Below are positions 2,355 to 49,152 of a stretch of DNA of 64,000 nucleotides, piece by piece. This stretch comes from Rhodothermales bacterium. GTDB taxonomy: Bacteria; Bacteroidota; Rhodothermia; Rhodothermales; Bin80. The stretch lies in contig CBDHCQ010000004.1 of NCBI GenBank assembly GCA_965261255.1, positions 3,215,559 to 3,279,558 on the forward strand. The letters run 5' to 3'. The notes beneath the pieces were generated by a model. That model saw nothing but the letters and a program-made list of their open reading frames with translations, did no database searches and was not told where the DNA came from. A program made the position numbers and the translations under genes. Position 1 is the first letter of the stretch, and each line of letters begins with the position of its first letter.

Positions 2355-3035
2355 GTTACAGTGACAACAGATTGGCAAACAGGCGATACGCCCCGGCAAC
2401 CGCATAGGTCAGCTGGCGGTGGAACGCGAGTGCACAATATGTATAGTGTCCCTGACCGTATTCCGCCGTTAGAAATGCGCCCCTTTGCGGATCCTGACCG
2501 GTGTCATGGGTTTCGATGAGTGCCGAATAGGCCTCATCCCATTCCGTAAAGAATTTGGATCCGCGCTGCTCCACCCAACCGTCAAAATCGGCCGCTGTAA
2601 TGGCATTGGGGACCGTGATAACAGGATGGTCTGGGGCGAGAATCGTAACGGGTGCGTCCTCCTCGGATACCTCCTCGGCACCCCGAGACAACCGGGCTGA
2701 AATCGGTGCCATCTGCTCTGGCACAAATTCCTGTGTCTGATACAATACAATCAGGTTGCCACCTGCATGGGCATAGTCCATAAGCCTCCGGTTGTAGGTA
2801 AGCAAGTCCTGCCGCACTGCATAGGCCCGTATTCCGACCATAATCACATCATAGGAATCCAAATCACCGCTGGCCAGGTCCGCTTCCTGAAGCAAAGTAA
2901 CATGAGCACCCAATTGCTCAATTCCCGAAGGAACCTCATCGCCGACACCCATGGCGTAGCCCACATTCAAACCCGCGGCAACTTCCACATTGAGTCCACT
3001 GACCAAAGTAGTGGCATCGCGGAACAGGTAGCGTG

Positions 3036-3043
3036 TTTCCATA
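3036..3043. repeat. Target-site duplication, left copy (TTTCCATA)
   Basis: Identical 8-mer TTTCCATA at 3036..3043 and 4458..4465, directly abutting the two inverted repeats. Confidence 0.85.
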
Positions 3044-3069
3044 GGGAATTATATACAATAGTGCCGGTG
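3044..3069. repeat. Left terminal inverted repeat of the tnpB element
   Basis: GGGAATTATATACAATAGTGCCGGTG compared with the reverse complement of 4432..4457, GGGAATTATATACAAGAGTGCCGATG. Confidence 0.85.
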
Positions 3070-3107
3070 GTAGGAATCTATCCCCAGCTCTGGTAGGTAT
3101 ACGGATA

Positions 3108-3137
3108 CAGTAGGATGGATCGCATGCCACCCTACTG
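3108..3137 (+). other. Subterminal stem-loop in the left end of the tnpB element
   Basis: CAGTAGGATGG (3108..3118) pairs with CCACCCTACTG (3127..3137), 11 bp with one mismatch and an 8-nt loop. It resembles the subterminal hairpins of IS200/IS605 ends. Confidence 0.45.
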
Positions 3138-3153
3138 CATACCATAACATCAG

Positions 3154-4452
3154 TTGCGTTATGCCATGCCCGCAGAGTCCGTAAATCAAAGATCACAGGA
3201 ACGTTCCTATGTCAGCGTTCGCTTTCGGCTACGGGGCAAGCGCAAGATCTATCGGTTTCTGAATGAGCTGGCAGGTGCCAACCGCTATCTCTGGAACGCA
3301 GCCCTGGCGCAGTGCAGAAAGGACTACGCGGAGACCGGCAAATCAAAGACAGCCCGCAATAGCCTGTTCAAATGGTATAAACAGCATAAGGATACCGAAG
3401 CACCCTGGTTATCCAAGTACCCCGTAGCGTTAACTCGAACTGGGTTGCAAGGCCTCTCAGTTGCCTATAGAGAATTCTTCATGCAGCCGGAGCGAGGGCA
3501 TCCGAAGTTCAAGAAGAAGGGTAAAGCCAAGAAGACGTTTGCAGTGGAGATTGCTAGTTCGCCAATCAAGCAAAACGGATACTTCCGTTTGAAGCAGGGC
3601 CTGTTTGCGAAGATGATGGACTACGACAGGATCAATCGATACTCCAATCCTGTCCCCAAGTCAGCACGAATCTTTGAAGACCGGGGCAAGTGGTATATCA
3701 CGGTCGCCTATGAAGTAGACGCAGTAGCGTATCAATCTGACGGCATAGGCGTTGGTGTTGACCGAAACGTAGGGCAAGTCGCCGACAGCACCGGACAGAT
3801 GCACCACCTGACAGACGTAGAACGTTTAGAGAAGCGGATCAAGAACCTGCAACGCCGGCAAGCCAGGCGGAAGAACGGCAGTTGCAAATACAGAAAGACG
3901 AAAAGGACGATTGCTCGTCACAAACGCAAGATCGCAAACATACGCAGGAATGATCACAGACATATTGCACGGGACCTAACGACCTGTTCAACTCTAGTGT
4001 TACTGGAAGCCTTGAAAACCAAAGGGATGACGGCCAGTGCAAAGGGAACGGTTGAGACTCCAGGCAAGAATGTCAAACAGAAAGCAGGGCTCAATCATGG
4101 TATCCTTGGCACAGGCTGGCGCATTTTGGAGGGATTCCTTGAAGAGCGTGCTGTCGTCCATAAGATCAATCCGGCGTACACATCACAAACCTGCAGTAAA
4201 TGCGGTCACGTAGACCCGAAGAATCGGGGATCACAAGCCGTATTCAGATGTCAGCGATGTGAATATCTCATCAATGCAGACGTAAACGCAGCATTGAATA
4301 TACGGACGTTGGGGATGGCGTCCTGGCGGAAGCTAAACGGTTCTGGAGCCTATGTAAGACCTGTCATTGCAGCGCGTGAGCCTGCAACCAGGCCACGGGT
4401 GCTGAAAGAGCAAAACGGACAATTCGTGCCTCATCGGCACTCTTGTATATAA
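3154..4452 (+). CDS. tnpB: TnpB-like RNA-guided endonuclease (OrfB_IS605 / RuvC plus zinc ribbon)
   Basis: The 432-aa ORF has RuvC-like acidic motifs (GVGVDRN, LVLLEALK, INADVNAALNI) and a CxxC..CxxC zinc ribbon (CSKCGH...CQRCEY). The ORF-track start is TTG at 3154 and the first ATG is at 3166. The stop TAA at 4450..4452 lies inside the right TIR. The last ~45 codons may be read-through of the guide-RNA scaffold. Confidence 0.85.
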   Translation: MRYAMPAESVNQRSQERSYVSVRFRLRGKRKIYRFLNELAGANRYLWNAALAQCRKDYAETGKSKTARNSLFKWYKQHKDTEAPWLSKYPVALTRTGLQGLSVAYREFFMQPERGHPKFKKKGKAKKTFAVEIASSPIKQNGYFRLKQGLFAKMMDYDRINRYSNPVPKSARIFEDRGKWYITVAYEVDAVAYQSDGIGVGVDRNVGQVADSTGQMHHLTDVERLEKRIKNLQRRQARRKNGSCKYRKTKRTIARHKRKIANIRRNDHRHIARDLTTCSTLVLLEALKTKGMTASAKGTVETPGKNVKQKAGLNHGILGTGWRILEGFLEERAVVHKINPAYTSQTCSKCGHVDPKNRGSQAVFRCQRCEYLINADVNAALNIRTLGMASWRKLNGSGAYVRPVIAAREPATRPRVLKEQNGQFVPHRHSCI

Positions 4453-4457
4453 TTCCC
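4300..4457 (+). ncRNA. Putative omega/reRNA scaffold overlapping the tnpB 3' end
   Basis: This is inference from known TnpB biology, where the guide RNA derives from the 3' end of tnpB and the right end. Stem-loops are visible at 4376..4397 (GTGaGCCTG/CAGGCCAC) and 4426..4440 (GTGCC/GGCAC). I ran no covariance model. Confidence 0.3.
4432..4457. repeat. Right terminal inverted repeat of the tnpB element
   Basis: Reverse complement matches 3044..3069 at 24 of 26 positions by eye. Confidence 0.85.
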
Positions 4458-4465
4458 TTTCCATA
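4458..4465. repeat. Target-site duplication, right copy (TTTCCATA)
   Basis: Identical to 3036..3043. Confidence 0.85.
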
Positions 4466-6492
4466 TCTCTATTACGGATAACCTGGTAGCCCCCACTGAT
4501 ACGGGCCTCGCCGATCTGGGCAATGGCGCGGACTTCATATTCCTCGCCCGCTTGCAATGTTGGCACAGCTACATCAAAGGAAAACGTATGACGTTCTCCC
4601 GCTTGTGCGAATGACAAGTCGTAACCGGCCGGATCGGCCGTCCATCCCTCGGGAAGGCCGAGCTGCAACAGGCCCTGCGTGCCACCGGCAACATTGTTAA
4701 TGACCTCAGTATCCACTGTAAAAAGACTGCCGCCTTCCTGGGGGATAACGATTCGCTGCGCAGGTACCACATTGACGGCCACCGCTGGCATAACCTGAAG
4801 TTTTCTCATGACAAACCCATAGGGCAGGTCTGCTTCACGGGTTTTCACGTCCCGCATCAGCATAAAAGGCACGCCCAGGACCTCTATCGTAGCGGTTACG
4901 CGTAAGCTGGCGGGTCGGGTAGGCCGATGAATCCACATGGGCTCACGCCACTGGAAGTGGTTTTCCTTGACACTTGACCGAAAGAAGTAGGGACGGGCAT
5001 AGGGAACATTCTCCGGAACGGTAGCAGTAAACATCACTTGGTGATAGGGTGCTGATTGCCGGGTGTCCGACTCAATCTGCCAATCGTCTGCGGTCAATCC
5101 CGACGGATCGTCAATGGCCAGCATCACACCGTCAGCCTCGATTGCCGACGGATTATACAAGCGTGCATGCACCTCAAAGGTCTGGCCACGGACAACTGGC
5201 CCCATTGTGCTGGGTGCTTGCCAGAAGCTTACCGCCGCCGGCGTGCCTGGCGGCTGTGCTGTCGCAGTAAGGGTAATGCCCATCGCCGTGGTTATGGCAT
5301 GCTGGAATTGCTGCTCCTTAATTCGCAGCATAAAGGCGGTTTCTGAGTCGGATGGGAGCAAGGTCAGCAGTGCCCTGGTCTGATCAAGGCCAGCGGTGAG
5401 GTGGCCAACGACTGCTGCCGGACTACTCGGCTTAAGCGCCGTCATGGCCTCATGCACATGCATGGCTATCCCTGCCAAAAGGTCTGTTGCGCCCGCTGGG
5501 GGCATTTCGCCCGTCAGTTCAAATAAGCCTCCCAGCGAGACGTCCAGTCCATCATAGATACCTTCTTCCGGTGCGGGGCCGGGCTCGGACAGGCGTTCAT
5601 AGTAATAGGGAACCGGTCCCATACTGGATCGCGATCGTCCGCTGGTTTGTGAACGCTGAAGACGTAGGCCATAAACGCCAAAGTTGTAATAGGAATCTCC
5701 GATCCACGGGCTGTGCTGTCCGGCATCAAAGTTGATACACCAAGGTTGGTTTTCGCGTACGCCGCCACGATATGATTTGCGCACGGTCCACGGCCGCAGA
5801 CCTTCTTCGATAATCTGTTCGGGAAACCGGTCTGGATCAGCTGCCGCCGCGACCGCGTCAGAGGTCAGTCCGCCAATAGCCTGATGATTGCCGTGCCCGT
5901 CTCGCACGGACCCGTGGAATCTACTGATGACCACAAGCGGCCGATTCGTCCGAATTATCCGCACCATATCGGAGAGCAGGCACTCTGTGTCCCAGCTTTT
6001 GAGCGATTCTTCCAATGTCTTGGAATATCCGTAATCCGCAGCACTGGAAAAATAGAGGTCGTCGAGTCCATAATATCAACCGGCAAGGCGTAGCTCTTCA
6101 GTTCGGATCAATCCCAGGCCGTCGAATAATTCAGGGCCGATGGCATTGGCACCAGCTTCCCCGCGATTGACCGAGAATAGCGCCACTCGTGCACCGACTC
6201 CTCGGCTCAAGTGCGTAAGCAGTCCGGCATGTTCATCATCCGGATGGGCTACGGTATGCAGCATACTGCCGGTAGTAGACAGCTTTAGCAGTTGTTGCCA
6301 CAACCCCGAACTTCCCCGGTCCACGTCCAGCAGGTGCCGCCTTCGGTATCCAAGGTGCTCAAGAGTACAGATTCTTGAGCCAAAGTCACAGATGAGCAGA
6401 ATAAACAGGCTACAAATAGGATGGTCAAGCGGCACATGAGTTGGCAAAATTATGGTGAATAGCTGCAGAATCAATCTAGCTGGCAACGATAG

Positions 6493-46961: not shown

Positions 46962-47477
46962 ATTGGTCGTAATATCCTAAACTTGAAAGTCGCAATATAC
47001 ATCCAGTTTGGCAGGTGTCAGGGAGATTGTACAATAAGTGCAGTCTCTGCAACGCACAAAGCGGCCATTCAGGGACAGAGCGCGTCTTGTCACTATAGTC
47101 CCTCAAGTCCAGAGCAAATACACCTTGAAATTAACGCCTTGCGTGGATAGGGGTTGACCGGATAACCGGGATGATGGTCTACACTACCTGCGATAAATAC
47201 TATGACGAACTAAACGCAATCAACAAAATTCATGCTCTGTTGCGAAGTCATTATGATAATGGGAAAACGGTCGATGCTAATTAATCCGATGCCGTATTCG
47301 CCTTGGATGAGATCCTCGCTCCGCCGACTCGTCGCTCGGATGACACCCAAATCCTTGCATTAGCGTTGGCCATTGGGCCTACCGTTCTCGCTCATGTGAC
47401 AAAAAAGGAGATTATATACGGTAGTAGCCAATCGTCCACTGCCTTCGCATTTGGCTGAAAGAACTAATCGACTGCAA

Positions 47478-48557
47478 TTAAGCCTGAGCTAGCAGCCACG
47501 ACACGCGGTCACGCAGCTTGTCCTGTAGGTTGTAAATGTCGTTAATTGAATCAATAGGAATTTTTTCCCAAGAAGTGGCCCCGGATTGTATGGCTACCGC
47601 TTTCTTCTTAGAACCGAAGTAAAACCGACAAATGGCCCTCCGAGGATCGTTGTCAAGCAAGATATTGCAATACGTAACCCTGTCCATCATAACCACCCTG
47701 TCCAAGTCAACATGGCCTAGCAACACGGACTTAACAACATGATAGCCCATGATTTCATCTTCCGTAGTCACGATATCGGACTCCTGCTCAGAGCCCACAG
47801 CTTCATCAGGAACAACTTCAACTTCGTTACTATCTTCCGATTCGCTATCCAAGGCTAACTTTAATCGCTTTTGAACGCGATCATTGATGAATTCACGAAA
47901 AGCATCTTGGGCAATACCTACGAAAGACTCTCTAACTTTCTTAGTACGTTTACCCTTGTATACTTGACTAAGTATGAACAAGACAAAATCGTTGCTCGGC
48001 CTCTTCAGTTGGTCAGCCAATACCTGCTTAATGGATGTAATGTATTTTACGTTGGTTGCAACATGAATTGATGATTCCAGGTCAAAGGCCGACTTTGTGA
48101 AGATTTTCAGACTCTTGGCAGCCCTCTCTGTCACGTCTTCAAGGAGACTGAATTCCATGAAGGGACTTCCATCCATCCTGTTCGGTTCATCGAGGTCGGA
48201 ATAAAAGCGGTAGAGTAAGCCATTTGTCAGAATACCAAATCTTGCTTCCGTCGCAGTGAAGTAGCGGTACAATTGGGTCGCATTTTCCTGAGATAACTCG
48301 GAATCAGACGGCTTGCACTCAATTAGTAGAATTGGTGCTCCATCCTTGATTATGGCGTAATCAACCTTCTCCCCCTTCCGTTGACCAACGTCAGCGTGAT
48401 ATTCAGGAACTACTTCTGTAGGGTCAAACACGTCATATCCTAACGCGCCAATAAACGGCAATACAAGAGCCGTCTTGGTGGCTTCCTCGGATTGTGCGTG
48501 GCCAGCAATTGATTCCGCACGAGAACCAAGCGTGCGAAGTCTGTCAATGAAGTCCAT
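47478..48557 (-). CDS. HsdR_N-like PD-(D/E)xK nuclease-fold protein (type I restriction enzyme R N-terminal domain family)
   Basis: EEATKTALVLPFIGALGYD, then KVDYAIIKDGAPILLIECK (a D..E-x-K core), then FGILTNGLLYRFY. It is a stand-alone gene. Confidence 0.65.
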   Translation of the reverse strand: MDFIDRLRTLGSRAESIAGHAQSEEATKTALVLPFIGALGYDVFDPTEVVPEYHADVGQRKGEKVDYAIIKDGAPILLIECKPSDSELSQENATQLYRYFTATEARFGILTNGLLYRFYSDLDEPNRMDGSPFMEFSLLEDVTERAAKSLKIFTKSAFDLESSIHVATNVKYITSIKQVLADQLKRPSNDFVLFILSQVYKGKRTKKVRESFVGIAQDAFREFINDRVQKRLKLALDSESEDSNEVEVVPDEAVGSEQESDIVTTEDEIMGYHVVKSVLLGHVDLDRVVMMDRVTYCNILLDNDPRRAICRFYFGSKKKAVAIQSGATSWEKIPIDSINDIYNLQDKLRDRVSWLLAQA

Positions 48558-48744
48558 GGTTAGTCTCAGTTTGGGTGATCCAGAATTAGTGTTACCGATA
48601 ATAAACCTTCTGCTCCTTCCATTCGGCCAATTCCTTCCGAGACGTGAACAGCGTCGCCCTCGCTATTTTCCCGATGCGTCCGGGATAGGCCCCGGCCACT
48701 CTTCGTGACGGGCCTGCCGAGCTTGCGGTTACGTTGTTCCTTTT

Positions 48745-49152
48745 TCAAAACGGTAGATCGTTTATTGGTGAGTGGTATTTCTCCGGCTCTGCAATAAGGT
48801 CCGTGTACCGGAGCCGCTTGCCTTCCATATCTGGAGCGACACGCTCCATGTGGTCAACAGCGCCAAACGGGTGTTGGTTGTGACGGCTCGCAAACTCGGT
48901 AACGTAACGGTCCGGATGCCTACGCGACATATAGTGGTACGTTCCGTGATTGCCCCGCTTCATCATCGCCCAAAAGCTCTCCATGCCGTTCGTGTACGCC
49001 TGTTCCCGGACGTACTCCGCGACGCTATGCTTCACCGATTCCTGGTTCTCGAGGCCCATATATGCCATGGCACCGTCGGCATACACCTTCACGCATTCCT
49101 TGGTATTATCATACAGAAAGCCCTTACGCGTAGCTGCGTGCGTACTGTTCAC
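48745..49152 (-). pseudogene. IS1595-family (ISXO2-like) DDE transposase, C-terminal remnant
   Basis: YADGAMAY...HSVAEYVREQAYTNGMESFWAMMKRGNHGTYHYMSRRHPDRYVTEFASRHN matches the conserved C-terminal half of IS1595-type transposases. The N-terminal ~150 aa are missing and I found no ends. Confidence 0.7.

Follow-up and report, generated by a model that had tools for sequence, protein, structure and literature searches.

Within the 64-kb stretch of Rhodothermales DNA analyzed here (the window), a gene of the PIG-L (LmbE-like) deacetylase family is interrupted by a compact element that carries a tnpB gene between terminal inverted repeats (TIRs) and is flanked by an 8-bp target-site duplication (TSD). 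TnpB, the ancestor of Cas12, is thought to restore transposons after the scarless excision performed by Y1 transposases or serine recombinases. The ends of the present element are shared with cut-and-paste transposons that encode DDE transposases of the IS1595 family, and the 3′ region of its tnpB appears to specify a guide RNA whose fold uses the transposon end itself. We consider the element most likely a nonautonomous IS1595 derivative that carries tnpB together with a predicted omega RNA and is moved in trans by an IS1595 transposase.

The Element and Its Insertion Site

The two TIRs of the element (Table 1) agree at 24/26 positions, or at 93% over 27 nt if one flanking base is added, and their 23-mer core occurs at two sites only in the 64-kb window, both of them ends of the element, against a chance expectation of 0. 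Deletion of 3044–4465 makes the minus-strand reading frame continuous again (...VIRNRDMETRYLF...), and the empty site predicted in this way, with a single TTTCCATA, is present in related Rhodothermales metagenome-assembled genomes (MAGs) in which the site is uninterrupted: it is matched at 80/80 nt in L202 and L203, at 79/80 in L201, and at 78/80 in L204, the L-numbers denoting comparison loci fetched from other genomes or metagenome contigs. Because an empty site with one TTTCCATA exists in related genomes, the repeats were absent from the target beforehand, and 3044–4457 was genuinely inserted there, duplicating 8 bp of the target. A reading of the TSD as a chance repeat was considered and rejected. 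The original prediction, made from the letters of the window, had described a 1414-bp insert with inverted-repeat ends and a perfect 8-bp flanking duplication, and had suggested that empty-site alleles be sought in related strains; the insert and duplication are as described, and the alleles exist. It had also held that excision of the insert restores the PIG-L frame, which is correct for the frame itself, but the gene was a pseudogene by then: at 6076–6078 (minus strand), an in-frame TGA stands where 20 homologues have an invariant Arg, and since the same TGA is found in the four uninterrupted orthologues L201–L204, the PIG-L-like gene was dead in the population before the insertion took place. 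The genome of L201 also contains a related copy of the gene that is intact (L208).

The TnpB Protein and Its Leader

The tnpB gene is the only meaningful open reading frame (ORF) of the element, and its TAA stop codon falls inside the right TIR. The encoded protein scores 179.5 bits against NCBIfam guided_TnpB (cut-off 100) and matches the Pfam families Cas12f1-like_TNB, OrfB_IS605, and HTH_OrfB, while its score against NCBIfam IS607_TnpB, 72 bits, is far under the cut-off of 350. Its RuvC motifs are centered on D199 (GVGVDRN), E281 (LVLLEAL), and D372 (NADVNAALN), it has a zinc finger of the form CSKCG...CQRCE (CxxC...CxxC), and residues 34–407 align with the ISDra2 TnpB structures 8h1j and 8bf8; the identification of the sole ORF as a TnpB with RuvC D/E/D residues and a zinc ribbon, already made in the original prediction, is thus confirmed by the guided_TnpB match and the located motifs. 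Judged from its sequence, the tnpB cargo is most likely functional. The top solved-structure match of the 3154–4449 translation is PDB 9j09_A (E = 1.4e-25), a protein of 540 amino acids deposited as "Transposase", with which the window TnpB shares the long, near-identical motif GMTASAKGTVExPGKNVxQKxGLN between RuvC-II and the zinc finger; an exact-protein look-up of the window TnpB with two choices of start codon returned no record.

The leader upstream of tnpB contains two hairpins, the first of which had been noted earlier as a subterminal hairpin at 3108..3137 and is kept in the relatives L121–L125 via compensatory changes; other clades have a different strong hairpin in the same leader position. 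This structure might serve translation control or block read-through, or it might be a relic of an IS200/IS605 left end. A scan for sigma-70-type promoters, which is uninformative for this phylum, found none in the element.

A Widespread Family of tnpB-Only Elements

The insertion in the window is one of many. In a pattern-anchored search of tnpB loci, a TIR pair of the form GGG[A/G][A/C/T]TTATAT..., spaced at 1.25–1.64 kb, was found in ~47/80 loci encoding homologues of the window TnpB; perfect 8-bp TSDs are present at 22 of the tnpB-homologue loci, every site being different, and several more match at 6–7 of 8 positions. The other copies share with the window element their end positions, the TIR tip, and an 8-bp TSD, a constancy on which the original prediction had made its case depend. 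The hosts are without exception bacterial or archaeal MAGs and extend over many bacterial phyla and Nitrosopumilaceae archaea, including Rhodothermales, Caldilineaceae, Thermodesulfobacteriota, Dadabacteria, Porisulfidus, Gammaproteobacteria, and Spirochaetia; many of the MAG names look like those of marine-sponge symbiont lineages. The closest Rhodothermales TnpBs (L121 and L122) are 88–90% identical to that of the window, whereas TnpBs only 26–32% identical are still enclosed by these ends, with 8-bp TSDs, in Arenicellales (L052), on a Nitrosopumilaceae chromosome (L011), and in Cenarchaeum (L093), with L011, from an archaeon, and L052 at 26–27%. The TIRs are absent around more distant TnpBs from Sutterella, Pseudomonas, and a cyanobacterium, and also around TnpB relatives on viral contigs, which are 28–39% identical over most of the protein (one short fragment reaches 50%), so that no viral vector was found.

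Two further kinds of end were seen around related TnpBs. In the Nitrosopumilaceae archaeon OZ220738.1 (L190, 3794–5374), a TnpB 34% identical to that of the window lies alone in an element of 1581 bp whose TIR, GGTTCTATTGCAAAC... (27/29), is a different one and resembles IS6-family ends. The duplication around it, TTCCCTAGC, is a perfect 9 bp, and the whole appears to be a DDE-type shell of a second kind enclosing a related TnpB. In Flavobacteriaceae bin25, L129 (3849–5411) and other MPMN01 loci encode TnpBs that are 41–45% identical to that of the window and form the nearest outgroup in a rough tree; these are bounded by yet another TIR, GGCTCTAATCACTTTGTTGTGGAAT (25/26), without an 8-bp duplication, and are present in several copies in the MAG.

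IS1595 Transposons with the Same Ends

When one genome per species was scanned for the 15-mer TIR tip, a scan whose results include many chance matches, loci were recovered in which these ends, with matches of up to 26 nt, surround a protein of 313–335 amino acids with a zinc ribbon and a DDE domain. This protein is an IS1595-family transposase, as judged by its matches to Pfam DDE_Tnp_IS1595 and Zn_ribbon_IS1595 and by a score of 179 bits against NCBIfam transpos_IS1595 (cut-off 75). Transposase-carrying elements with these ends (GGGAATTATATAC...) lie in L002, L041, L079, and L089, and the first three have perfect 8-bp TSDs (AAAAAAAT, AATCAATT, and AATGAATT, respectively). A dedicated search with a four-sequence alignment, a nine-sequence alignment having proved too diverse for locus searching, yielded 80 transposase loci (L227–L306), 40 of which possess the TIR pair together with a perfect 8-bp TSD; a tnpB gene lies inside the transposase-carrying element in none of the 80. 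These elements mostly measure 2.2–4.5 kb, a size that implies one to three passenger genes beside the 0.94-kb transposase gene. The window TIR is identical to the ends of the transposase element of L227/L041 at 25–26 of 27–29 nt, and in the metagenome contigs L307 and L310, an IS1595 transposase gene begins ~110 nt behind a TIR identical to that of the window over 23–24 nt. A metagenome scan for the exact right end returned five contigs with the TIR only and no tnpB body, and no further copies of the element. Smaller elements of 142–567 bp, the size of miniature inverted-repeat transposable elements (MITEs), have the same ends and TSDs as well (Table 1).

All that is common to the tnpB-only and the transposase-carrying elements is their terminal 24–31 nt, and the tnpB element is therefore best described as a nonautonomous IS1595 derivative: the TIR type and the 8-bp TSD of the family are present, and the DDE transposase with its N-terminal zinc ribbon is not encoded by the element. 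Both kinds co-occur in the Rhodothermales chromosome OZ244823.1 (L123–L125 with L261) and OZ241964.1 (L149 with L041). In the former, the inner TIR of L123 matches that of the resident transposase element L261, while L125 of the same genome has a TIR of the window type, and the internal right-end sequences of L123 and L125 are nearly identical despite their different inner TIRs, which suggests that TIRs may be swapped to fit the transposase at hand.

The window itself holds a second trace of the family. The C-terminal remnant of an IS1595-family transposase lies some distance from the tnpB element, beyond an ORF and a TIR-like sequence (Table 1), and 47407–49152 probably represents the decayed state of an IS1595 element that carried a passenger gene. 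The remnant shows that the IS1595 transposon family has been resident in the source genome; it cannot itself be the copy that mobilizes the tnpB element. In a separate case, two IS1595 copies in opposite orientation in Thermodesulfobacteriota OZ244044.1 (L089, 2729–6742) bracket an ORF that ends in 13 tandem QHKDLET repeats and is glycosyltransferase-like by eye alone; the layout is similar to that of a composite transposon, though no clean TSD is shared.

A Predicted Guide RNA Wired into the Right End

In 43/47 elements, tnpB terminates within the right TIR, its stop codon being 5, 13, or 17 nt from the tip, and the DNA 3′ of the RuvC-III motif is conserved in an RNA-like manner. From single-sequence folds we proposed a structure in which stem-loop 1 is followed by a CACGG/CCGUG stem that encloses a variable hairpin, and in which the loop of stem-loop 1 (generally GGGAAU, GGGGAU in the window) pairs with the tip of the TIR to form a pseudoknot. 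This proposal was then tested by counting pairs on 43 right ends, with 16 pairs drawn from stem-loop 1, the CACGG/CCGUG stem, and the pseudoknot. Standard pairs occupy 90.3% of the cells of the 43 sequences, as opposed to at most 50.5% when the partners are slid by 1–3 columns, and 0/500 shuffles equalled the observed score for pairing or for covariation. In the pseudoknot helix, 92.9% of cells are paired, and one of its pairs changes from A-U to C-G in 11 sequences, matching the difference between the TIR tips AGUCCC and AUUCCC. RNAalifold, applied to the gappy 43-sequence alignment, returned a trivial 6-pair helix only, and an Rfam scan of 2800–4800 at E ≤ 1 returned no known RNA family.

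In ISDra2 and ISXfa1, the pseudoknot of the TnpB RNA is formed between the loop of stem-loop 1 and the ~5 nt that precede the guide (PMC10711439), and the pseudoknot proposed here agrees with that description. As the pseudoknot partner in the present family is the TIR tip, the predicted omega RNA, or right-end RNA (reRNA), scaffold would end at the transposon tip, and we infer the guide boundary from this end point together with the rule given for ISDra2 and IS200/IS605 in PMC10711439. The guide should then begin with the TSD, with a predicted sequence of TTTCCATATCTCTATT....

Table 1. Coordinates of the tnpB-only element, its putative RNA parts, and related features (window positions unless a comparison locus is named)
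Feature	Position	Strand	Remarks
tnpB-only element	3044–4457		1414 bp; bounded by TIRs
Left copy of 8-bp TSD, TTTCCATA	3036–3043	+	base 3035 = G
Left TIR, GGGAATTATATACAATAGTGCCGGTG	3044–3069	+	IS1595-type end
Subterminal hairpin in tnpB 5′ leader	3107–3138	+	3105–3140 in another analysis
Second small hairpin	3143–3163	+	directly before ATG
tnpB	3166–4452	+	428 amino acids from ATG; longest ORF from TTG at 3154
Predicted omega-RNA (reRNA) scaffold	4303–4457	+	overlaps tnpB 3′ end
Stem-loop 1	4304–4323	+	loop GGGGAU, 4311–4316
Right-end-specific hairpin	4426–4440	+	uses inner TIR
Right TIR, reverse complement GGGAATTATATACAAGAGTGCCGATG	4432–4457	−	
3′ tip AUUCCC	4452–4457	+	predicted pseudoknot partner of stem-loop 1 loop
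Predicted guide portion, TTTCCATATCTCTATTACGG	4458–4477	+	inferred; TSD + ~12 nt of flank
Right copy of 8-bp TSD, TTTCCATA	4458–4465	+	
Interrupted host gene, PIG-L (LmbE-like) family deacetylase homologue	2356–6486	−	pseudogene
TIR-like sequence, GGAGATTATATACGGTAGTAGCC (GGAGATTATATACGG...)	47407	+	
ORF between TIR-like sequence and transposase remnant	47478–48557	−	359 amino acids
IS1595-family transposase remnant	48745–49152	−	C-terminal 135 amino acids
MITE-sized elements	L053 7076–7642; L071 5324–5648; L048 321–536; L054 2216–2472		TSD 8/8 or 7/8

Strand-Specific Bias in the Flanking DNA

We oriented 21 unique perfect-TSD tnpB insertions by their tnpB gene and took both sides of 40 transposase-carrying elements as controls. 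The controls display a symmetrical target, S|WWWNNWWW|S, with G at position −1 in 27/80 cases (34%). Directly 5′ of the left TSD of the tnpB elements, by contrast, G is found in 19/21 insertions and A in the other two, never C or T, while the corresponding position on the right side has G in 7/21 (Fisher test for G at left −1: p = 3e-4 versus the right side and 2.8e-6 versus the controls). Among the tnpB elements, 13/21 have A at −4 and 18/21 have it as the first base of the TSD, and their TSDs consist of 56% A and 22% T on the tnpB strand, compared with 41% A and 40% T in the controls.

Since a guide that starts at the TSD has its match in the empty site directly after position −1, this is where a target-adjacent motif is expected, and the flank bias indeed looks like the target-adjacent motif of the nuclease. 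The bias may be read as the trace of retention or homing that depends on such a motif. In the occupied allele, the base at this position of the right junction is the C of ...TTCCC, and the element would thereby escape cleavage by its own nuclease.

Proposed Mechanism and Alternatives

These observations can be assembled into a working scheme. An IS1595 transposase made elsewhere would bind both ~26-bp TIRs and integrate the element via staggered cuts 8 bp apart, giving rise to the TTTCCATA duplication, in this case within a PIG-L-like gene that was already dead. In the transcript, the last six bases of the TIR (AUUCCC) would pair with the loop of stem-loop 1 and so supply the pseudoknot needed by TnpB RNAs, and the guide would be composed of the duplicated 8 bp and the next ~8–12 bp of flank. 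The nuclease would then cut element-free copies of the site, whether an empty allele or a precisely excised donor, provided that the preceding base fits the motif (G), and recombinational repair from the occupied copy would restore or spread the element. That the element is a nonautonomous TIR element mobilized in trans by a DDE transposase had been proposed in the original prediction, which called for a search for an autonomous partner; the ends shared with IS1595 transposase elements support the proposal, and same-TIR elements encoding an IS1595-family DDE transposase do exist, as in L307 and L310. The further step, namely that TnpB and its guide RNA have been taken over by IS1595 transposons and work as a homing or retention module, with the pseudoknot rebuilt on bases recognized by the transposase, the guide formed by TSD and flank, and the bias reflecting motif-dependent survival of insertions, we advance tentatively, as a possibility that falls somewhat short of being probable.

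Several considerations weigh against this account in whole or in part. No intact IS1595 transposase gene lies in the 64-kb window, where the family is represented by the remnant at 48745–49152 only. The apparent motif is one base (G, or a purine in 27/27), far shorter than the known TnpB motifs of 4–5 nt, and the site in the window, although it has G at −1, departs from the bias at −4 (C, not A) and at TSD position 1 (T, not A). Few lineages, mainly Caldilineaceae, account for the compensatory changes in the pseudoknot, and the RNA region is also coding, so that protein constraint may add to its conservation. In a neighbor-joining tree, which is too crude to tell one capture from several, the IS1595-linked TnpBs seem not to form one tight clade. 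Cut-and-paste excision leaves a break anyway, and whether a DDE element gains from a homing nuclease is under debate (PMC13565253). The account as a whole, moreover, is built from sequence comparison and computation.

The alternative that best survives these considerations accepts an IS1595 derivative moved in trans but regards its TnpB and RNA as passive or decaying cargo without a role in element maintenance, either as a mere passenger or in some other capacity, such as regulation, with the flank bias due to another cause. Unrelated passenger genes are common in IS1595 elements, as the 2.2–4.5-kb size of most transposase copies indicates, and such a view sits comfortably with both the break that DDE excision leaves regardless (PMC13565253) and the single strong position of the apparent motif. 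A passenger does not, however, predict a bias that is specific to one strand and absent from both the transposase controls and the opposite side, nor does decay agree with an intact catalytic D/E/D triad and zinc finger, with an RNA structure and pseudoknot conserved across phyla, or with full-length ORFs kept in many independent insertions; we therefore regard passive carriage as unlikely. A nested insertion, in which an ordinary IS200/IS605 (IS1341-type) tnpB element sits inside a small IS1595 MITE and retains hidden ends of its own and a Y1-dependent mobility, draws some support from the existence of MITE-sized elements with the same TIRs (L053, L071, L048, and L054) and from the subterminal hairpin near the left end, a position in which IS200/IS605 left ends have one. 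Yet the element offers no space for separate ends, given that the tnpB stop lies inside the right TIR in nearly all copies (43/47), and the pseudoknot partner of the RNA scaffold is the TIR tip itself, with covariation; a single nesting event would be insufficient to explain an architecture repeated in ~47 loci with TnpBs down to 26% identity, and among the close relatives no TnpB copy was found in a canonical context without TIRs, all of which makes nesting very improbable. That TnpB or some other non-IS1595 enzyme moves the element, its IS1595-like ends being coincidental or convergent, we hold to be barely credible: although no transposase has been observed acting and an intact IS1595 transposase gene is missing from the window, identity over 23–26 nt links the ends to those of elements encoding IS1595 transposases, the TSD is 8 bp long in both the tnpB and the transposase class, and the inner TIR of a tnpB element in OZ244823.1 matches that of the resident transposase element.

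Comparison with Known Systems

The original prediction had called the arrangement unusual for bacteria; unusual it is, but it has precedents in prokaryotes (PMC10691335, PMC13565253). According to the text of Altae-Tran et al. 2023 (PMC10691335), six DDE-associated TnpB branches (DDE-1 to DDE-6) have inverted terminal repeats, solo TnpBs with the same ends as transposase-carrying elements occur, and IS630 is named as a DDE partner; a 2026 review (PMC13565253) lists the partners as ISL2, IS630, and IS1031 and considers the reasons for the rarity of DDE links. The family described here resembles the DDE-associated TnpBs in that a prokaryotic tnpB lies between symmetrical inverted terminal repeats with its 3′ end <250 bp from the transposon end, and it resembles the solo TnpBs in sharing its ends with transposase elements, which implies mobilization in trans (PMC10691335). 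It differs from them in its partner, the IS1595 family with an 8-bp TSD (cf. PMC10691335, PMC13565253), and in that tnpB and transposase were never seen in one element, as judged from 80 transposase loci. The name IS1595 is found neither in the accessible text of PMC10691335, where the family may be among the unnamed branches, nor in that of PMC13565253, and our literature search found no paper that combines IS1595 with TnpB in this sense. The TIR-tip pseudoknot, the strand-specific flank bias, and the spread over many phyla and archaea, all documented here, were likewise not found in the accessible text of PMC10691335 or in PMC13565253.

In function, the nearest analogy is offered by the Fanzor proteins of eukaryotic TIR transposons. 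As with Fanzor1 and Fanzor2* (Bao & Jurka 2013, PMC3627910; Yoon et al. 2023, PMC10711439), a TnpB-family nuclease resides in a cut-and-paste transposon with TIRs and a TSD that is often nonautonomous, and, as in Fanzor, the predicted guide RNA runs through the TIR into the flank. The hosts, however, are bacteria and archaea rather than eukaryotes or eukaryotic viruses, and the protein is a TnpB of ordinary size (428 amino acids) rather than an enlarged one. Whereas Fanzor1 has lost the pseudoknot, it is retained here on the last 6 nt of the TIR, and the variable TSD is therefore probably part of the guide; in Fanzor1, the TSD has been proposed to be part of the scaffold.

Among the established prokaryotic tnpB carriers, the IS1341 group is close in outline, being likewise a tnpB-only element of ~1.3–1.5 kb with a 3′ omega RNA and a transposase supplied in trans. 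IS200/IS605 elements, to which that group belongs, have neither TIRs nor a TSD and are moved by a Y1 HUH transposase (PMC13565253), in contrast to the 26-bp TIRs, the 8-bp TSD, and the ends shared with DDE transposase elements that are found here; the presence of TIR and TSD equally separates the element from IS607, which has a serine recombinase and neither feature. Membership of the IS1341 group would also entail insertion 3′ of a fixed motif of 4–5 nt and mobilization by a Y1 TnpA acting on subterminal hairpins; the element does have a conserved left hairpin, but its ends match those of DDE elements. With the passenger-gene elements and MITEs of the IS1595 family, finally, it has in common the TIR tip GGG[A/G][A/C]TTATAT, the AT-rich 8-bp TSD, and a variable internal content, but unlike the passenger-gene elements it lacks a transposase gene, and it carries a predicted RNA-guided nuclease, the RNA of which is built into the end of the transposon.

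Significance

A TnpB that is borne by a DDE transposon and mobilized in trans is thus already known as a kind, and IS1595 is apparently an undescribed partner; the TIR-tip pseudoknot and the motif-like flank bias are new mechanistic leads. Why TnpBs are tied to IS200/IS605 and IS607 has been raised as a question in PMC10711439, and whether, and by what means, a TnpB is of service to prokaryotic cut-and-paste DDE transposons is the related question that the IS1595-tnpB family addresses. The family is large and natural, with dozens of insertions that arose independently and with transposase-only elements and MITEs as matched controls. Where the guide RNA ends, which motif is used, and what the nuclease contributes are all legible in the sequences and open to direct testing. 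For annotation, the practical consequence is that such elements should not be filed under IS200/IS605, and compact TnpBs with a very short apparent motif might also be of interest for genome editing. In evolutionary terms, the family offers a concrete case of a guide RNA rewired to a new transposon end, a step needed for the later spread of Fanzor into eukaryotic TIR transposons. If the proposed role as a homing module is true, these elements would extend RNA-guided homing in prokaryotes beyond IS200/IS605 and IS607 and would represent a prokaryotic counterpart of the Fanzor-in-TIR-transposon state, spreading over bacterial phyla and archaea.

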